Shown: in pieces, positions 4,165 through 27,339 of the stretch | Numbering within the stretch: position 1 is the stretch's first letter | Layout: every line of letters starts with the position of its first letter | From: Clostridia bacterium | GTDB taxonomy: Bacteria; Bacillota; Clostridia; Oscillospirales; SIG627 | Assembly: GCA_017439965.1 (NCBI GenBank) | Contig: JAFSID010000102.1 | Span: forward strand, 26,472 to 90,471 | Direction of reading: 5' to 3' | DNA: 64,000 nt | The notes under the pieces: model-generated | Databases searched by the model: none | What the model was told of the DNA's origin: nothing | The model's input: the letters and a program-made list of their open reading frames with translations, nothing else | Program-made: the position numbers and the translations under genes

Positions 4165-4242
4165 ATCATTGGAAACAAATGTAGCCGAGAGAGGTATATC
4201 CGCATACCGCTCACGGCAAGTGATAAAACGGAGGAAAATATT

Positions 4243-5178
4243 ATGTTAGTTAACATGAACGAGGTACTCTACCCTGCTAAAAAGAATAAGTACGGCGTAG
4301 GTCTTTTCAATGCAGTAAGCATGGAGCTTGCAAGAGGTATCATTCAGGCGGCTGAGCAGACAGGCTCTCCCGTTATTATGGGTACCGCAGAGGTGCTTCT
4401 TCCCTACTGTCCTCTTGAGGAGGTTTCCTACTATCTTATTCCTATGGCTAAGAAGGCAAGAGTTCCGATCGTTGCTCACCTTGACCACGGTCTTAAGAAG
4501 GAGACCTGCATCAAGGCTCTTGAGCTTGGCTTTACGTCCATTATGTACGACTGCTCGACCGATTCCTACGAGGACAACGTAAGAAAGGTTCGTGAGATGG
4601 CAGACATCGCACACTCCTACGGAGCTACCATTGAGGGTGAGCTCGGACACGTAGGCGGTGTTGAGGGTGGCACGGGTGCAGATCAGGAAGAGGATCCCAC
4701 CAAGTACTACACCGATCCCGAGCAGGCATACGATTTCGTCACAAGAACTAAGGTTGACGCGCTTGCAATTGCAGTAGGCACCGCACACGGCGCTTACAAG
4801 CTTCCCCCCAAGCTCGACTTCAACAGAATTGAGACTATCGCAAACACCGTTGACGTGCCCCTCGTACTTCACGGCGGCTCAGGTCTTACCGACAACGATT
4901 TCAGAACTGCAATAGAAAAGGGTATTTCTAAGGTAAATATCTTTACCGATATCAATATCGCGGCAGTTGAGGCTGAATTCCGTGCGTTCACAGATATGAA
5001 CAAGGGTATCACCGACCTCATCCCTGCGGCAGTTGAAGCTATCCGCAAGGCAGTTGTAGAAAAGCTCGAGCTCTTCAACAGCTGTGGCAGAGGCTTACAG
5101 CAGACTCCCGGCGAGATTGACATCAACGACCTCGTTGCAAAGGTTACCGCTGAGGTCCTCAAGCATATGGGCAAATAA
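4243..5178 (+). CDS. fba: class II fructose-/ketose-bisphosphate aldolase with a C-terminal extension of about 27 aa
   Basis: The ORF track starts at 4102, but a GGAGG SD (4231-4235 region) precedes the in-frame ATG at 4243 (MLVNMNEVLYPAKKNKYGVGLFN..). Class II motifs are present: AHLDHG, HGGSG. The tail LQQTPGEIDINDLVAKVTAEVLKHMGK lies beyond the usual ..LF.S.G. end. Confidence 0.88.
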   Translation: MLVNMNEVLYPAKKNKYGVGLFNAVSMELARGIIQAAEQTGSPVIMGTAEVLLPYCPLEEVSYYLIPMAKKARVPIVAHLDHGLKKETCIKALELGFTSIMYDCSTDSYEDNVRKVREMADIAHSYGATIEGELGHVGGVEGGTGADQEEDPTKYYTDPEQAYDFVTRTKVDALAIAVGTAHGAYKLPPKLDFNRIETIANTVDVPLVLHGGSGLTDNDFRTAIEKGISKVNIFTDINIAAVEAEFRAFTDMNKGITDLIPAAVEAIRKAVVEKLELFNSCGRGLQQTPGEIDINDLVAKVTAEVLKHMGK

Positions 5179-5183
5179 TCAAA
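5134..5183. repeat. direct repeat copy 1 (50 bp, att-like): last 14 codons, stop and 5 nt of fba
   Basis: GTTGCAAAGGTTACCGCTGAGGTCCTCAAGCATATGGGCAAATAATCAAA is identical at 5819-5868. Identity ends abruptly on both sides. Confidence 0.95.
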
Positions 5184-5192
5184 TAATTATTT

Positions 5193-5227
5193 AAGGAAGG
5201 CTTAACCGCCTTCCTTATTTTTTATTT
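5193..5227 (+). terminator. rho-independent terminator after fba (inside the insert)
   Basis: AAGGAAGGC (5193-5201) pairs with GCCTTCCTT (5208-5216) around a 6-nt loop, followed by ATTTTTTATTT. Confidence 0.8.
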
Positions 5228-5304
5228 CAAAATAGTCCTTGACAAACATATATTCAGGAGCAATTCCCCAAGCCTTCCCGATTTGTGTTACCAAACATAT
5301 AATA

Positions 5305-5340
5305 GCACAAATCTGTGCGATTGTCAGCACAAATTTGTGT
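5305..5340. promoter_or_regulatory. two operator-like palindromes GCACAAAT(C/T)TGTG, 22 bp apart
   Basis: GCACAAATCTGTGC at 5305-5318. GCACAAATTTGTGT at 5327-5340, whose core CACAAATTTGTG is a perfect 12-bp palindrome. A half-site ATTTGTGT lies at 5281-5288. Confidence 0.5.
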
Positions 5341-5365
5341 TATTGATTATAATTATAACGATATT

Positions 5366-5543
5366 CGAAAGTCGAAATTCAAGAATTTCGACAGCAAAGC
5401 TTTGTTTTGCTAACAGTTTTCTTTGAGAAAACTGTCGATTTTCGTTCAAATGAATGTAGTCCAAAAAGCAATATGCTTTTTGGGGAGGCTGATATATCAG
5501 CTTCGAAAAGGCTTTTTGCCTTTTCGACATCCTACATTCATTA
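5366..5543 (+). other. hairpin cluster folding as two tandem four-way junctions (candidate structured RNA or ssDNA element)
   Basis: Module 1 (5366-5444): closing pair CGAAA/TTTCG and hairpins 5371-5392, 5393-5411, 5413-5435. Module 2 (5449-5543): an 11-bp closing stem AATGAATGTAG/CTACATTCATT and hairpins 5461-5483, 5485-5504, 5504-5526. All were paired by hand. Confidence 0.35.
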
Positions 5544-5558
5544 TTCTGAGGTGAAGTT

Positions 5559-5780
5559 ATGAAAAAATATCAAAACAGACTTAGAGACTTACGTCAGGAT
5601 AAGGATTTAACTCAAGAAGAAATTGCAAAAGTGTTCTTCCTGCAAACCACACAATACAGACGTTACGAAAACGGAGAAACCGATTTGCCGCTCGAATGGG
5701 CGAAAAAATTTGCCGTATACTATAACGTGTCAATTGATTACATAGCAGGACTTACCGATACTCCTAAAAGCTACAAATAG
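5559..5780 (+). CDS. XRE-family helix-turn-helix transcriptional regulator
   Basis: 73 aa. LRQDKDLTQEEIAKVFFLQTTQYRRYENGETDLPLEWAKKFAVYYNVSIDYIAG is a typical HTH_3 (Cro/C1) pattern. GAGGTG SD at 5548-5553. Confidence 0.85.
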   Translation: MKKYQNRLRDLRQDKDLTQEEIAKVFFLQTTQYRRYENGETDLPLEWAKKFAVYYNVSIDYIAGLTDTPKSYK

Positions 5781-5818
5781 ATTTAAAGCATATATTCAAG
5801 CAGAAGACGAAGCACGTT

Positions 5819-5868
5819 GTTGCAAAGGTTACCGCTGAGGTCCTCAAGCATATGGGCAAATAATCAAA
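5819..5868. repeat. direct repeat copy 2 (50 bp), a non-coding duplicate of the fba 3' end
   Basis: Identical to 5134-5183. The upstream in-frame sequence hits a stop codon 18 codons upstream (TAA at 5765-5767), so this copy is not part of a gene. Confidence 0.95.
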
Positions 5869-5874
5869 CACAAC

Positions 5875-5925
5875 AAAAAGGCTGAGCCTAAACACTCTAA
5901 AAAGTGAAGCTCAGCTTTTTTCTTT
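5875..5925. terminator. bidirectional rho-independent terminator (probable native fba terminator; also serves the nuclease gene)
   Basis: GCTGAGC (5881-5887) pairs with GCTCAGC (5909-5915). An A-run lies upstream and TTTTTTCTTTTTT downstream. Confidence 0.65.
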
Positions 5926-5927
5926 TT

Positions 5928-7067
5928 TCAAAAATCAGATTTCTTTAGGTTATGCATACGACAGAGCATTTGCCCGTTATCAAGCGTAGTATGTCCGCCT
6001 TTGCTCCACGGGATAATATGGTCTGCTTGCATATTCTGATAATTCCAAGGCTCACAGAAGCCCTCTGCGGCACACATCGGGCATATGCCCTTTTGCCTTT
6101 CAAAAAGTATCCGCTTTTCATTATCCGTAAACGTGCGTATCGACAAAAGACGCTCACGGCTTCTACCGCTCAGCATATACTCATAAACTCCTTTTTGATT
6201 GGTTACGTCATCATCCTGAAGCAATAAGCTTATGCTTTTTTCCAACTCAGTCGGATCGTAGACCTCACCATTGAACTCATTGAACAAAATCCCCCAATTA
6301 AGTCCCTTCATAAGCTTCCCTCTATACTTGGGGAAGGTAAGCTCTACCCAATCAATCACAGCCTTATAATACTGCTTTAAGGGAGTAGCGTGAGTATCGT
6401 GCTGATGCTCTGCCATATATTCTTCAATGCTTTTTCCCTCCTTGCACGAAATCCAATGTAGAACAGTCTGTAAGTAATCTTGTCGAATGGGCGAGCCCGC
6501 CATATAACGTTCACCTATTTTATATGCAATACACTGATTTTTACTGAAATATTTTTTTGCATCACTCAGCCATTCTCCTGAGTAAACAGCATTTCTGAGC
6601 TCCTGTTCAGTAAGCTTTTCTCCTGCTATATTTATTATTTTAAACCAGTCAAGCTTTTCTGTATCAGTACCCTTGCAAATATATATCATCAATTTATAGT
6701 CAAGTACTTTCCGAGTTATTTCGTTTGACGTATGTGCATAATACCTCGTAGTCGGAACGTTCGGATCAGCCGCCACCGAAAATCCGTTGTCAAGCCAATC
6801 ACAAATACTTATCGTCCGCTGTTGACCGTCAAGCATTTCATACGTTCCATCCTCATTTTCAGACCAATACATAACGTTAAGCGGATAATTGTGTAAAATA
6901 GAATTTATAACTGCAATCTTCTTTTTATCATCATACACAAATTCTCTTTGATATGCGGGACGGACGTTAAGTCTTCCTCCGTAAGCAACAACTCTGCCAC
7001 TATCTTCATCGTCGTCAAAGCCGTCAAACAAATCTCTTACAGTGATTTCTTTAAGTTCAATTTCCAT
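5928..7067 (-). CDS. DUF262 (ParB/GmrS-like) plus C-terminal HNH nuclease
   Basis: 379 aa. N-terminal part: RPAYQREFVY and MLDGQQRTISI (the DGQQR signature of DUF262). C-terminal part: CPMC...ADHIIPWSKGGHTTLDNGQMLCRMHN (HNH finger). The start overlaps the methyltransferase 3' end by 11 nt, with an AGGAG SD inside it. Confidence 0.85.
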   Translation of the reverse strand: MEIELKEITVRDLFDGFDDDEDSGRVVAYGGRLNVRPAYQREFVYDDKKKIAVINSILHNYPLNVMYWSENEDGTYEMLDGQQRTISICDWLDNGFSVAADPNVPTTRYYAHTSNEITRKVLDYKLMIYICKGTDTEKLDWFKIINIAGEKLTEQELRNAVYSGEWLSDAKKYFSKNQCIAYKIGERYMAGSPIRQDYLQTVLHWISCKEGKSIEEYMAEHQHDTHATPLKQYYKAVIDWVELTFPKYRGKLMKGLNWGILFNEFNGEVYDPTELEKSISLLLQDDDVTNQKGVYEYMLSGRSRERLLSIRTFTDNEKRILFERQKGICPMCAAEGFCEPWNYQNMQADHIIPWSKGGHTTLDNGQMLCRMHNLKKSDF

Positions 7068-8130
7068 TGTTTTTTCTCCTAATAATTATTCTTGCGTATT
7101 TAGGTTTACCATTTATTTCCGTTAAATATTTTCCTTTAGTTTGAGGTGTGGGTCCATCTATCATACTGTATCGTCCTATACCATCCAAAATTTCAAACTG
7201 CTGAGGATTATATTTATCAAGGAACGTAATAGGAACTCCCATTGCGCCATAATAATCCTCCGGAATATTTGATGTTGAATCGACATTTATAGCATCATAG
7301 TTATCGTACTTGGGATATTCTTCAGGATTATATTTCTTCCAAAGCTCCAAATCCGTATGACGTTCTACATAATCCATATTCGTAAACCATCGCACTCCTT
7401 TCACCCTTATATATTTATTACCTTTTTCATCAACTCTGCACCCCGATGCCTCCATAGGATAATCAGTCGGCACTCTAAACTCCCTATCTCCGCTATGTAT
7501 AGAGTAGCCAAGCCACAGTTTATTTTCCTTGATTAAGGAAAAAATATCTCTATATGAAGTAGCATTAACATTACCAATTATCAAAAATTGTTTTTTATGC
7601 TCTATTAACTGAGAAACATATTCACGAAAAAGAGAAAATGGAGGATTGGTCACGACGATTTCCGCTTCATTTAATATCTCAACACATTCATTAGAACGAA
7701 AATCCCCATCTCCTTTTAACAAAGAAAGTGTATTTTTCTTATTTCGCAGTAAATATTCAACATCAACAAGGTCAATGGCACCATCACCGTTTATATCGTC
7801 AACATCCGTAATATCAATTCTGTAAGCACTTTTTTCATTTTTGGTTTCTATACACTCCTCGAAAAGACTCATTTGATCAAACTCAGTACCCGCAACGGAT
7901 GACCCTTTATAGCAAGAGGCAATCAGTCTTTTTAGTCCTAAGTATTTAAAATTCATAGCGAAGTATTTAAAAAAATTACTTTCATAAGGATCATCACAAT
8001 TACAAAACACCGTTTTATCTTTAAAATGATGTTTGTAGTGCTTTAACTCCGTCTCAATATCAACAAGTTGCGTGTAAAACTCATCCTTCTTATTTTTATT
8101 GGCCTTACGCAAATCACTATTACCCGACAT
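7057..8130 (-). CDS. N6-adenine DNA methyltransferase, EcoRI-methylase-like family
   Basis: 357 aa. DEFYTQ near the N-terminus, FCNCDDP, and the catalytic VVTNPPFS (NPPF) motif. It contains the EF-hand-like insert DINGDGAIDLVD. Confidence 0.8.
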   Translation of the reverse strand: MSGNSDLRKANKNKKDEFYTQLVDIETELKHYKHHFKDKTVFCNCDDPYESNFFKYFAMNFKYLGLKRLIASCYKGSSVAGTEFDQMSLFEECIETKNEKSAYRIDITDVDDINGDGAIDLVDVEYLLRNKKNTLSLLKGDGDFRSNECVEILNEAEIVVTNPPFSLFREYVSQLIEHKKQFLIIGNVNATSYRDIFSLIKENKLWLGYSIHSGDREFRVPTDYPMEASGCRVDEKGNKYIRVKGVRWFTNMDYVERHTDLELWKKYNPEEYPKYDNYDAINVDSTSNIPEDYYGAMGVPITFLDKYNPQQFEILDGIGRYSMIDGPTPQTKGKYLTEINGKPKYARIIIRRKNNGN

Positions 8131-8165
8131 AATTTTTCTCCTATAATTTTAAAATTTTATATATT

Positions 8166-8200
8166 TATATAAGTATATACATATATAAGTATATATTCAA
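8166..8200 (-). promoter_or_regulatory. candidate M-R operon promoter (TTGAAT-17-TATACT) overlapped by two tandem TATATAAGTATATA boxes
   Basis: Boxes at 8166-8179 and 8182-8195 (16-bp period). On the minus strand, -35 at 8200-8195 and -10 at 8177-8172. Confidence 0.45.
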
Positions 8201-8209
8201 TTAAACGAA

Positions 8210-8238
8210 TTGTCAATAAGATATATATTTAATAAAAT
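8210..8238 (+). promoter_or_regulatory. candidate promoter of the small HTH gene (TTGTCA-17-TAAAAT)
   Basis: TTGTCA at 8210-8215, a 17-nt spacer, TAAAAT at 8233-8238. Confidence 0.45.
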
Positions 8239-8258
8239 ATATATTGGAGGAAAACATT

Positions 8259-8468
8259 ATGGTTAGATTAAAATTAAAAGAGTATCTTGACCTGATTGGG
8301 ACTACAAGATACGACCTTTCTGTAAAAAGCGGAATACAATATCAAATAATTGACAAATATTATAAAAACAAGGTGGTACGGTATGACAGCTATGTGCTTG
8401 ACAGAATTTGCTACACCTTGGATTGCGATATATCTGACATAATCGAATATAAAAAAGATAAAGCGTGA
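8259..8468 (+). CDS. small HTH protein (Cro/C1-type), candidate controller of the divergent M-R operon
   Basis: GGAGG at 8246-8250 sits 8 nt before the ATG at 8259 (MVRLKLKEYLDLIGTTRYDLSVKSGIQYQIIDKYY...). The track start at 8244 is a TTG inside the SD region. Confidence 0.75.
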   Translation: MVRLKLKEYLDLIGTTRYDLSVKSGIQYQIIDKYYKNKVVRYDSYVLDRICYTLDCDISDIIEYKKDKA

Positions 8469-8498
8469 TGTTTGAAAACATCACGCTTTGCGTTTTTA
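8461..8498 (+). terminator. rho-independent terminator after the HTH gene
   Basis: 12-bp stem AAGCGTGATGTT / AACATCACGCTT with loop TGAA, then TGCGTTTTTA. Confidence 0.8.
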
Positions 8499-8504
8499 TT
8501 ATAA

Positions 8505-10454
8505 TTATTTAGTAAGCATCCACACTGCCATTTTTGACTCGTCGTTCCATCCCTTACCTGCCGAGGAATAGTCGGTAACCGTCATAAAGCTACCGTCACA
8601 AAGAGGAATCTCAAGAGCCACTATCGACTCATACGGAGAGGTGCTCTCCTTTACGTCAACCGTGCCGTCCGCATTGACGAGAACGTCGATGGGGTCATCA
8701 ACACTGTAACCGAGACCGTTCTCCTGAGCAAGCATCAAAGGTCCTCTTTGAAGGGCGATATGCTTGATGGCGAGAGGGTCCTGCTTGTCGTATACGGGAA
8801 TTACCGCAAGGTTGCCTCCTCGGTCGAGCACCGTACCCGTCATAAGCACCTGCTCTCCGTACACCTCGGGATAAATGGCAACGGTCGGCATATCAAGTGA
8901 GATTTCAACCGTATCACCGCTTTTCCATTCGCGGTTGATTGAAACGTAGCCGTCACTTACCTGAACAGACTGACCGTTAACCTTAACGGAGGTATTCTTG
9001 CTCCATTCGGGATTTCTGACGAAGAGCGTAAAGCGCTCGGGCTTGTCAAGAGTTAATTTTACCGAGACGTCACTTCCCTTGGGATAGTCGGTAGCCGTTT
9101 CAAGAATAAGCTTCTCACCGCTCGGTGTCAGGGTTTCTGCCTTTCCGTCAACGAAGAGGTTGAGCGCAATTCCGTCGGGGGTGGTCATAAGTTGCATTTT
9201 CGACACGAGACCGATACCCGCAGAGCCGATGCAGGCACAACAGCCGTAATAGTGATTGTCGGACATAAAGCGGAGTCCTCCGACGCCCTTTCCTCTGCGG
9301 TCTGCGGTAAGAGGGCTGTAGCTGTCAAAGGGCATAGGCTCTTTCACACATTCGGGCGTAAGCACCTCGTAGCAAACCTTCTTGTTGGTGTTTACCGCAC
9401 CGAGATAAGCGTTATAAAGTGAGCGCTCAAAGGCATCCACGTATTTAGGGTCTCCCGTCACGAGATGCACCTGATACATAAACTTCATCATAGTTACGGT
9501 AACGCAGGTCTCCTGAGCAATGTTACCGTTGGTGGTATTAGCCTGACGCACGGTGGAATGGTCGAAAAGCTCGTGAGTACATCCACCGCTTCCTATTACG
9601 GTAAAGTCGGTCTCAAGCATCTTGTCGGCAAAATTAACGACAGCCCTCTTGTGCTTTTCATCCCCCGTAAGTCTGTAATACTCAAGAAGTCCTTCAAAGC
9701 AGGATATCATTTCATAAGCCTTTGTAACGGGATACTGATAAGGATAAAGGCCGTCCGCAAGCGCATACTCAAAGACGTTTCCGATATCAATACAGCCGTG
9801 TCTTATGATGTGCTCGGCGAGTGAAAGATAGGTCTTGTTTTCGGTGAGCATATAGAGTCGGACGACGGGCTCAAGAATGGAGGAGGCATTGAGACCTCTC
9901 CAGAAATTAGAGGTGTGAGTAATCTTGGTTTGACCCTCTCCGTCACCGATTTTGGAGGCGATGTAATCAACCTGTGTACACATTGAAGCAATAACGCGCT
10001 TTTCAAGTGACTCGTCACGGCAAATTTCAAGAAAATACTGCATACCTAAAAGCACGTACTTTCTGCACCACATATCCCAGCCTCTGAACTCATTGTCCGC
10101 GGGATAGGAGCTGATACGTCCGAGAGAGTCAACGCTCTCAATCATATCCTCAACGGTCTGCGAGAGCATTGAGTAAAGCTCCCCGTCACGAGTGTAGGAA
10201 TACACGAAGGTTGCACCGCGCATCATCTTGCCCCAGTACTCACCTCTCCAGCCCCCGTCATTGTCGGAGGACTCACGGAATTGCTGAACGAAGCGACGCC
10301 AAAGAGTAGGACTCTTGAGCTGAAATTCCTCTATAAATTTATAGGTCTTGTCAATTATTCCGTTGTAGGAATAACGGTTTTCAGTGTCAACGAAAAGCTT
10401 GTCGGTTGACATACGGTAGCTGTTTACACTTTTTTCTTTATACAAATTTCTCAT
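8505..10454 (-). CDS. glycoside hydrolase family 127 (DUF1680, beta-L-arabinofuranosidase-like)
   Basis: 649 aa. It has the E-x-C (IAQETCVT) and CC (YYGCCACIG) motifs, which match the Zn/Cys catalytic site I recall for HypBA1-type enzymes. Confidence 0.7.
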   Translation of the reverse strand: MRNLYKEKSVNSYRMSTDKLFVDTENRYSYNGIIDKTYKFIEEFQLKSPTLWRRFVQQFRESSDNDGGWRGEYWGKMMRGATFVYSYTRDGELYSMLSQTVEDMIESVDSLGRISSYPADNEFRGWDMWCRKYVLLGMQYFLEICRDESLEKRVIASMCTQVDYIASKIGDGEGQTKITHTSNFWRGLNASSILEPVVRLYMLTENKTYLSLAEHIIRHGCIDIGNVFEYALADGLYPYQYPVTKAYEMISCFEGLLEYYRLTGDEKHKRAVVNFADKMLETDFTVIGSGGCTHELFDHSTVRQANTTNGNIAQETCVTVTMMKFMYQVHLVTGDPKYVDAFERSLYNAYLGAVNTNKKVCYEVLTPECVKEPMPFDSYSPLTADRRGKGVGGLRFMSDNHYYGCCACIGSAGIGLVSKMQLMTTPDGIALNLFVDGKAETLTPSGEKLILETATDYPKGSDVSVKLTLDKPERFTLFVRNPEWSKNTSVKVNGQSVQVSDGYVSINREWKSGDTVEISLDMPTVAIYPEVYGEQVLMTGTVLDRGGNLAVIPVYDKQDPLAIKHIALQRGPLMLAQENGLGYSVDDPIDVLVNADGTVDVKESTSPYESIVALEIPLCDGSFMTVTDYSSAGKGWNDESKMAVWMLTK

Positions 10455-25096: not shown

Positions 25097-25130
25097 AGGC
25101 ACTCCGACAAGGAGTGCCTATCTTGTTTTT
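25097..25130 (+). terminator. rho-independent terminator
   Basis: AGGCACTCC / GGAGTGCCT (25097-25105 / 25111-25119) followed by ATCTTGTTTTT. Confidence 0.8.
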
Positions 25131-25139
25131 AACGCAGTA

Positions 25140-25288
25140 GTGCGATGCTTATCTGCAATGATGTAATTACAAAGAGAAGCGAGCAATACAAGGCAAAAAT
25201 AAGTAGGCACTTCGACGGAATACTTACGTATTTCGAGGAGTGCCTATCTTGTTTTTAACGCAGTAGTGCGAAGCTTATCTGAAGTAAT
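25140..25288. repeat. intergenic repeat copy A (149 bp, near-identical to 27191-27339)
   Basis: Collinear with copy B at a constant offset of 2051 bp, with only a few mismatches. It contains the long hairpin 25205-25245 plus a T-tract, and the motif AACGCAGTAGTGCGA. Confidence 0.9.
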
Positions 25289-27190: not shown

Positions 27191-27339
27191 GTGCGATGCT
27201 TATCTGCAGTGATGTAATTACAAAGAGAAGCGAGCAATACAAGGCAAAAATAAGTAGGCACTTCGACGGAATACTTACGTATTTCGAGGAGTGCCTATCT
27301 TGTTTTTAACGCAGTAGTGCGATGCTTATCTGCAGTAAT
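27191..27339. repeat. intergenic repeat copy B
   Basis: See copy A. The hairpin lies at 27256-27296, followed by a T-tract. Confidence 0.9.

Follow-up and report, generated by a model that had tools for sequence, protein, structure and literature searches.

A low-GC regulator cassette between direct repeats of an aldolase gene 3' end in ruminant-gut Clostridia

We analyzed a 64-kb stretch of DNA (the window) from a 'Clostridia bacterium' metagenome-assembled genome (MAG), and in particular the region just downstream of a gene for a class II ketose-bisphosphate aldolase. A direct repeat that includes the 3' end of this gene brackets a small cassette, and a gene for a 73-aa helix-turn-helix (HTH) regulator of the XRE (Cro/CI) type is the sole intact gene between the repeat copies. 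With a probability that we put at about 0.5, the cassette was inserted with a long duplication of its target and was then spread by homologous recombination. This reading draws on the allele structures of related contigs and on a parallel cassette in another species. Coordinates are window positions unless a contig is named, and L-numbers denote the related contigs that were compared. We call the aldolase gene fba; the name is approximate, as in NCBIfam the aldolase passes the cut-off of the cbbA (ketose-bisphosphate aldolase) subfamily alone.

Alleles of the aldolase 3' end and the length of the repeat

A first-pass annotation of this region had described a perfect 50-bp direct repeat of the fba 3' end, and this description holds. 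The 50-mer (GTTGCAAAGGTTACCGCTGAGGTCCTCAAGCATATGGGCAAATAATCAAA) occurs in two exact copies in the window, with 0 mismatches (Table 1). No third copy was found in the 64 kb with up to 3 mismatches allowed, and the chance expectation is none. Repeat identity stops abruptly on both sides, with just 3 of 5 bases matching to the left of the 50-mer. Copy 2, described earlier as belonging to no open reading frame (ORF), indeed lies outside every plus-strand ORF of at least 40 aa.

Related contigs were retrieved by exact-protein look-ups and come from the same clade, ruminant-gut 'Clostridia bacterium' MAGs; the comparative material, like the window itself, is metagenomic throughout. All core copies and their flanks were tabulated across these contigs, and four allele types were distinguished. 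In the window type, the aldolase gene and the first 50-mer are followed by the 13 nt TAATTATTTAAGG, the cassette, the second 50-mer, a sequence beginning CACAAC, a terminator and a restriction-modification (R-M) system. L002, L004 and L006 share this arrangement, and L005 and L009 cover part of it. L012 has the aldolase gene, a single 50-mer continuing directly into CACAAC (CACAACAAAAA...), the terminator and the R-M genes, with no cassette; when it is aligned to each window copy in turn, the two alignments share exactly 50 bp. L012 matches the predicted empty site, with fba followed directly by the terminator at 5875-5921. L026 has the same aminotransferase-aldolase context as the window and the same cassette, here between 63-bp repeats made up of the 50-mer plus TAATTATTTAAGG; downstream lie a different terminator, SLH and other genes, and no R-M system. 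Repeat spacing is 685 bp in both L026 and the window. L001 has the aldolase gene, a single 63-mer and the same terminator as L026, and represents the empty site of the L026 type. In all, the two-copy structure recurs in four other assemblies, at ~100% identity in three independent ones (L002, L004 and L006) and at 97–98% in the fourth (L026).

The 13 nt TAATTATTTAAGG follow both repeat copies in L026 and are present in a single copy in the empty allele L001. This sequence belongs to the downstream allele of L001 and L026 and not to that of L012. The 13 nt after copy 1 are part of the duplicated target, and the 50-bp repeat of the window is what remains of a 63-bp duplication. The insert had previously been placed at 5184-5818. 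An inserted unit with presence/absence polymorphism does exist, but 5184-5196 belongs to the target and the cassette starts at 5197. Both cassette junctions, AAGG/AAGGCTT and ACGTT/GTTGCAAAGG, are the same in L026 and the window. This identity points to a single primary insertion and a later transfer of the 13 nt into the R-M context, which makes the window arrangement secondary. The base composition of the cassette compared with its flanks (Table 1) indicates a foreign origin.

The second, bidirectional terminator, which follows copy 2, had been proposed to be the native terminator of fba. This is borne out for the L012-type allele: since the single 50-mer of L012 runs straight into this terminator and the R-M genes, the structure at 5875-5921 is the native aldolase terminator of that allele.

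Over 4239-4542 (the first ~300 bp), the window aldolase sequence is ~70% identical to that of L002, L004 and L006, and from 4543 on it is identical, which places a sharp recombination breakpoint within the gene near 4543. From this point through the cassette into the R-M genes, identity is 99.9–100%. The upstream context is formed by BMC shell protein and DeoR genes in these three contigs and by an aminotransferase gene in the window. On the right side, the restriction gene of L012 is 83% identical to that of the window and the adjoining methylase gene 99.8%; the R gene has been exchanged, or has diverged, apart from its M partner. Because of the sharp identity breakpoints in fba (L002, L004 and L006) and in the restriction gene (L012), these comparisons show frequent homologous exchange at the aldolase locus. 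The fba 3' end had also been called an integration hotspot. It is a recombination-prone junction that three or more alternative sequences can follow, namely the cassette, the R-M type of L012 and the type seen in L001, but the attachment-site (att) mechanism that went with this claim is unsupported.

Part of the locus may also occur elsewhere. In L003, the segment corresponding to 5353-8024 of the window (99.9% identical) is joined to a GntR gene, after the terminator of that gene, with a tyrosine recombinase gene upstream (L003 1-1660). Here, the copy-2 50-mer travels with the XRE and R-M genes, away from any aldolase gene. L003 is either a second chromosomal site of the leader-XRE-50-mer-terminator-R-M segment or a chimeric metagenomic contig.

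Origin of the duplication and competing explanations

We favor a history in two steps. In the first, for which the structure is shown and the polarity is inferred, the cassette would have entered 18 nt 3' of the aldolase stop codon in an L001-type locus, where the ancestral aldolase gene would have been followed by TAATTATTTAAGG and the different terminator. This insertion would have duplicated 63 bp of target, namely the last 42 coding nt, the stop codon and 18 nt. In the second step, suggested by the allele structures, the right repeat copy would have recombined within the shared 50 bp with a chromosome of the L012 type (aldolase-terminator-R-M), either by allelic exchange or by Campbell-type integration of a 685-bp circle released by repeat-by-repeat excision. 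Both routes would place the aldolase gene first, then the 50-mer with its 13 nt, the cassette, the second 50-mer, the terminator and the R-M genes, and would leave a repeat of 50 bp. The expected junction of the circle would be ...GAAGCACGTT + core + TAATTATTTAAGGAAGG or, with the 63-mer, GAAGCACGTT + 63-mer + AAGGCTTAACC. The class of insertions to which the first step would belong is descriptive and recombinase-independent; such insertions probably arise when a staggered break captures a DNA fragment and the gaps are then filled in.

This class, insertion with long target duplication, was defined on cases in which R-M genes are the insert, most of them from naturally competent Proteobacteria; the mechanism is unknown (PMC2853133). 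Furuta et al. (2010) considered duplications of >30 bp around inserts of <20 kb; in our case 63 bp (50 bp in the window) surround 622 bp, and at a second site, in L051, 64 bp surround 619 bp. As in their scheme, related loci that are empty have a single copy (L001 and L012; L208 and L210 for the L051 site), and there are no mobility genes in or beside the cassette, where the neighbors are aldolase, R-M and GH127 genes. Their search also called for R and M genes inside the insert; here the R-M genes lie to the right of copy 2, outside the repeats.

Several XRE family members among species-representative genomes are bracketed by long direct repeats. In another species (L051 and L209), a 619-bp cassette (41.7% GC, with flanks of 62.5% and 53%) carries a DUF6809 gene, the same type of operator and an XRE gene whose product is 76% identical to the window protein. 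In L051 (5553-6299), its neighbors are a P-type ATPase gene on one side and an AraC gene on the other, and it is bracketed by an exact 64-bp repeat that takes in the intergenic bidirectional terminator and the final 23 nt of the AraC gene. Repeat spacing is 683 bp, and the non-coding DNA between the cassette genes and the repeats amounts to 4 nt and 16 nt. L208 (identical AraC protein, flanks 99.3% identical) and L210 (86%) have one repeat copy and no cassette. Because both L208 and the more distant L210 are in this state, the empty state is ancestral at the L051 site. The window and L051 cassettes have only the operator-XRE half in common; their left halves are unrelated and they share no ends. 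This parallel is easier to reconcile with a generic type of insertion that duplicates a long target than with an att system specific to fba.

Two other XRE cassettes bracketed by direct repeats are less clear cases. In L056 (5604-6259) the repeat is a palindromic terminator of 44–47 bp, homologous to the terminator after XRE in L016, and in L048 (383-2384) it is a 77-bp element resembling repetitive extragenic palindromes (REP-like), with copies 96% identical; no empty alleles were found for either. In a census of 768 kb of XRE-centered loci, three of the seven repeat pairs of at least 35 bp bracket XRE, as does one of five pairs in more distant XRE loci. These loci were selected through XRE, and both counts are suggestive only. 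It is a long shot, in our estimation, that such XRE-73 modules are the cargo of a class of non-autonomous cassettes inserted by host or helper machinery that cuts with a ~45–65 bp stagger beside terminators and gene 3' ends. If they are, the route would resemble transposition, but with target duplications several-fold longer than those of any known transposase, and the close agreement between the two unrelated sites (duplications of 63 and 64 bp; repeat spacings of 685 and 683 bp) would reflect the geometry of the machinery.

A number of points weigh against the two-step history. The enzymology of long target duplication being unknown, its first step is more a label than a mechanism. No outgroup fixes the polarity at the aldolase site, where L001 and L012 may have lost the cassette secondarily through deletion between the repeats. 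Site-specific integration, too, classically leaves a duplication that restores a gene's 3' end, and the failure to find an integrase-bearing element is a weak negative, with the core absent altogether from the genome, metagenome and viral collections. L051 is the sole fully documented parallel: the L056 repeat may not be a target duplication, and that of L048 is REP-like. Finally, both window copies and L012 have C at position 5157, where both L026 copies and L001 have A. The repeat copies track the local aldolase allele, a pattern that calls for gene conversion or a suitably matched donor; every model can accommodate it, and this position does not discriminate between them.

The site-specific alternative was the one put forward in the first-pass annotation, which read the insert as a decayed or cis-mobilizable element (CIME). 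Under this explanation, which we consider unlikely, an integrase-less element is flanked by att sites, the 50/63-bp repeat corresponds to the segment that attL and attR have in common, and a tyrosine or serine integrase acts in trans from a related integrative and conjugative element (ICE), integrative and mobilizable element (IME) or prophage. Two attB alleles would then have been targeted independently, once to give the window type and once to give the L026 type. Several points favor it. The repeats contain a gene 3' end and leave the aldolase intact, both attB variants are known with and without the insert, and an inferred attP (...ACGTT + 63 bp + AAGGCTT...) fits both. The cargo is a phage-type repressor by its matches (PHROG transcriptional regulator/repressor families; NCBIfam RstR-like, below its cut-off), and some XRE relatives adjoin terminase, portal and capsid genes. 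The precedent given in the annotation is also accurate: the ICESt1/ICESt3 family of Streptococcus thermophilus has its integration site at the fda 3' end, and CIMEs are by definition decayed elements in which both attL and attR are retained (PMC3234194, PMC5704250).

The searches for the machinery of such an element were negative. No ORF for a recombinase lies between the repeat copies, the locus contains no tRNA gene and no recombinase, the whole window has no Xer-like match, and no ORFs of the ICESt1/ICESt3-type integrase/excisionase and conjugation modules are present in 5184-8504. A full-length integrase element using the same core, for which a search had been suggested, was not found: a 26-mer of the core gave 0 matches in genome, metagenome and viral contig collections, and no integrase-bearing element with the core or the cassette ends was found in genome, metagenome, viral and phage searches, although the first three of these appear to lack the lineage and the negative is a weak one. 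The XRE protein has no close relative in viral or phage collections (best viral match 47% identity, best phage match ~53%, all below ~55%) and the cassette DNA has no phage match; on these grounds a phage origin of XRE was rejected. The tyrosine recombinase gene of L003 was considered as the missing integrase and also rejected. The order TrkH-TrkA-Xer-GntR(-DUF711) is conserved in L014 and L015 without the island, and the identity of L003 GntR homologues falls off smoothly, as for a core gene; the recombinase gene is a syntenic, chromosomal Xer-like gene and not the integrase of an element.

The L051 cassette adds to the case against a CIME. It is of nearly equal size but has an unrelated repeat and left half and no conserved ends, and would need its own integrase and attP; the few nucleotides between its genes and the repeats leave little non-coding DNA, and sizes of 622 and 619 bp are unlike random decay of large elements. 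A 63-bp repeat is also longer than the typical att identity segment. Overall, the polymorphic insert at a recombination-prone site is real, but the att/CIME mechanism lacks positive support. The cassette does not resemble an insertion sequence (IS) or a miniature inverted-repeat transposable element (MITE) either. These have terminal inverted repeats and target duplications shorter than ~15 bp; the cassette has no terminal inverted repeats, its ends being no more complementary than shuffled sequence, and the duplication is 63 bp.

The annotation had further suggested that the R-M islet is a second accreted segment with an eroded outer att site, and that a degenerate third repeat copy might be found near 8450-8520. 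The right-hand boundary of the islet yielded none (best local alignment scoring 23, compared with a shuffle maximum of 28); with no third copy bounding the islet, accretion is not supported, and this too counts against the CIME explanation. The possibility that the R-M islet itself brought the duplication, with copy 2 as a scrap of a donor fba, was rejected, as L026 has the 63-bp duplication without R-M. We retain the R-M-bearing allele as the explanation for the right half of copy 2.

It is improbable that homologous recombination accounts for every step. In such a scheme, a circle or fragment carrying the XRE module and an aldolase 3' end enters every aldolase site, the first included, by Campbell-type recombination, and the repeat is simply the shared homology; the aldolase end would have been acquired beforehand, for instance through aberrant excision or illegitimate joining at another site. 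The locus shows abundant homologous exchange, repeat copies always match the local aldolase allele, and in L003 the copy-2 50-mer moves with XRE and R-M away from aldolase, all of which suits this scheme. However, it leaves the origin of the first XRE-plus-target molecule unexplained, it has to be repeated with an unrelated 64-bp target in L051, and L003 is a single metagenomic contig that may be chimeric. In addition, 50–63 bp is short for efficient RecA-dependent integration.

An assembly artefact, with one real 50-mer copy and a mis-joined insert, was rejected: the source is a MAG and several related contigs break at 4765/4769, 5490/5491 and 6063, which suggests ambiguity in the assembly graph, but the order copy 1-cassette-copy 2 is identical in L002, L004 and L006 and shows strain-level differences in L026, across different samples and genome accessions, the 50-bp repeat is shorter than the k = 141 of k141-named (MEGAHIT-style) contigs such as L004, so that both junctions are presumably read-supported, and the 5490/5491 break falls within a short palindrome, GCTGATATATCAGC (5488-5501).

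Cassette contents and the restriction-modification islet

The content described earlier for the region between the repeats (a terminator for fba, XRE-type palindromic operators, a hairpin cluster, a 73-aa XRE gene and no recombinase) was reproduced by ORF, Pfam and folding scans (Table 1).

Table 1. Features of the aldolase locus in the window, from left to right
Feature	Position	Strand	Details
Class II ketose-bisphosphate aldolase gene ('fba'), 311 aa	4243-5178	+	PF01116, E 1.8e-88
Direct repeat copy 1	5134-5183	+	42 nt coding + stop + 5 nt of aldolase gene; last 14 codons = VAKVTAEVLKHMGK
Rest of original 63-bp duplicated target, TAATTATTTAAGG	5184-5196	+	In window after copy 1 only
Hairpin terminator, cassette left end	5192-5217		-16 kcal/mol, z = -4.9; now terminates aldolase gene
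Inserted cassette, 622 bp	5197-5818	+	35.7% GC vs ~49% in flanks; absent from L001, L012; present in L002, L004, L006, L026
Two palindromic operators (GCACAAAnnTGTGC) overlapping promoter	5305-5354	+	Predicted; operators 5305-5318 and 5327-5340; -35 TTGTCA 5321-5326, -10 ~5345-5354 (promoter scan)
Structured leader, 191 nt	5355-5545	+	3 hairpins + three-hairpin junction domain, between XRE -10 box and ribosome-binding site
XRE/Cro-CI type HTH regulator, 73 aa	5559-5780	+	PF01381, E 5.4e-10, 39.6 bits vs gathering cut-off 23
Direct repeat copy 2	5819-5868	+	Non-coding; right edge = start of R-M allele
Bidirectional terminator	5875-5921		z = -4.2 and -3.4; U-runs on both strands
Type II restriction endonuclease (GmrSD_N/DUF262 + HNH)	5928-7067	-	PF03235, PF01844; PADLOC REase_II PDLC03418, full length, E 4e-126
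EcoRI-family adenine methyltransferase	7057-8130	-	PF13651, E 1.9e-147; PADLOC MTase_II
HTH_26 protein, 69 aa	8259-8468	+	PF13443; divergent from methylase, resembles R-M controller protein

The XRE family comprises more than 400 proteins, the listed ones being 75–100% identical, and the window protein keeps all invariant residues of the alignment. In other species, its relatives occupy varied chromosomal places and are usually divergent from a second small HTH gene (for example in L016, L027 and L056). They have the intergenic operator-promoter layout in common, and homology to 5283-5355 is found upstream of the XRE relatives in every other context; the window lacks the divergent partner gene. 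The two operator palindromes are the sole matches of their kind in the window. The cassette, with its own terminator, an operator/promoter region, the structured leader and the XRE gene, probably expresses an autoregulated repressor. In L027 and L028, whose XRE relatives are 86% identical, the XRE gene and the divergent HTH gene edge a terminase-portal-capsid-adaptor cluster, followed by a gene for a 524-aa sigma-70-like protein. This context suggests that some family members may regulate phage-like islands.

Between the promoter and the XRE gene lies a leader that is not present in other XRE family members. It is predicted to be very stable (-82 kcal/mol, z = -9.07), and three L026 substitutions within its stems retain pairing as G-U on the plus strand. 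No Rfam family came near its gathering score in 5100-6000. The homology of L003 to the window begins at the left edge of the leader (5353). A 21-nt stretch of the leader (5437-5457) is an inverted match, at 20 of 21 positions, to the methylase coding region at 7684-7704 (codons DFRSNEC). The match is also present in the L026 cassette, where the R-M genes are absent. A minus-strand transcript of the cassette could be antisense to the methylase mRNA, and the match is possibly due to chance (BLAST E ~0.003).

Low GC content is common to the cassette and the R-M islet: 5184-8504 has ~35% GC, compared with a background of ~49%. The islet ends at ~8504; a GH127 gene comes next, followed by the his operon. 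Between the divergent methylase and HTH_26 genes, 8150-8243 contains AT-rich TATATA-type repeats with 8-bp phasing, plus an inverted pair, and these may be operators for the controller protein.

Farther along the window, a 48-nt element occurs three times with 0–2 mismatches (25110-25157, 25236-25283 and 27287-27334), just 3' of two tandem transglutaminase-like/SLH paralogues. The proteins encoded by these paralogues are merely 57% identical, and the 3' element is conserved.

Comparison with known systems

Insertions with target duplications of 30 to more than 100 bp and without a recombinase have been unexplained since 2000, and the aldolase locus is a well-resolved natural example. Its value lies in two allelic contexts, each known in the occupied and the empty state, in an independent parallel backed by an outgroup, and in a cargo of one tiny regulator gene. 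At the aldolase 3' end, which is a recombination junction, homologous exchange has moved both the repressor cassette and the Type II R-M islet from one chromosomal context to another. For annotation, the locus is a caution that a perfect repeat of a gene 3' end is insufficient evidence for an att site or a decayed ICE.

As in CIMEs and at the ICESt1/ICESt3 site, the direct repeats (50 bp in the window, 63 bp in L026) take in the end of a class II aldolase gene, the HTH gene stands alone between them with neither integrase nor transfer genes, and the site is variable and prone to islands. The likeness to S. thermophilus fda is one of description as a class II aldolase gene. In contrast to these systems, no cognate integrase-bearing element was found for the cassette in collections that appear to lack the lineage, and the cassette shows no homology to ICE or IME modules. 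The insert is also just 0.6 kb, and a related cassette of similar size is found at an unrelated target.

The cassette can also be compared with the Cro/CI-type (XRE) modules of temperate phages and phage-like islands. It encodes a 73-aa HTH_3 protein with two predicted palindromic operators over its own promoter, and relatives (L016, L027 and L056) have a divergently transcribed second small HTH gene. The window cassette differs in having no divergent partner, in the 191-nt leader intercalated before the gene, in the absence of phage genes nearby, and in that its phage homologues stay below ~55% identity.

The long-target-duplication class (PMC2853133) differs from the aldolase locus in its cargo, which here is an XRE regulator in uncultured ruminant-gut Clostridia, and in the position of the R-M islet, which here lies outside the repeats. 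As in that class, the insert is small, lacks a mobility gene and is of foreign base composition, the repeats exceed 30 bp and are single-copy in a close relative, and at the aldolase locus an R-M system is directly adjacent.

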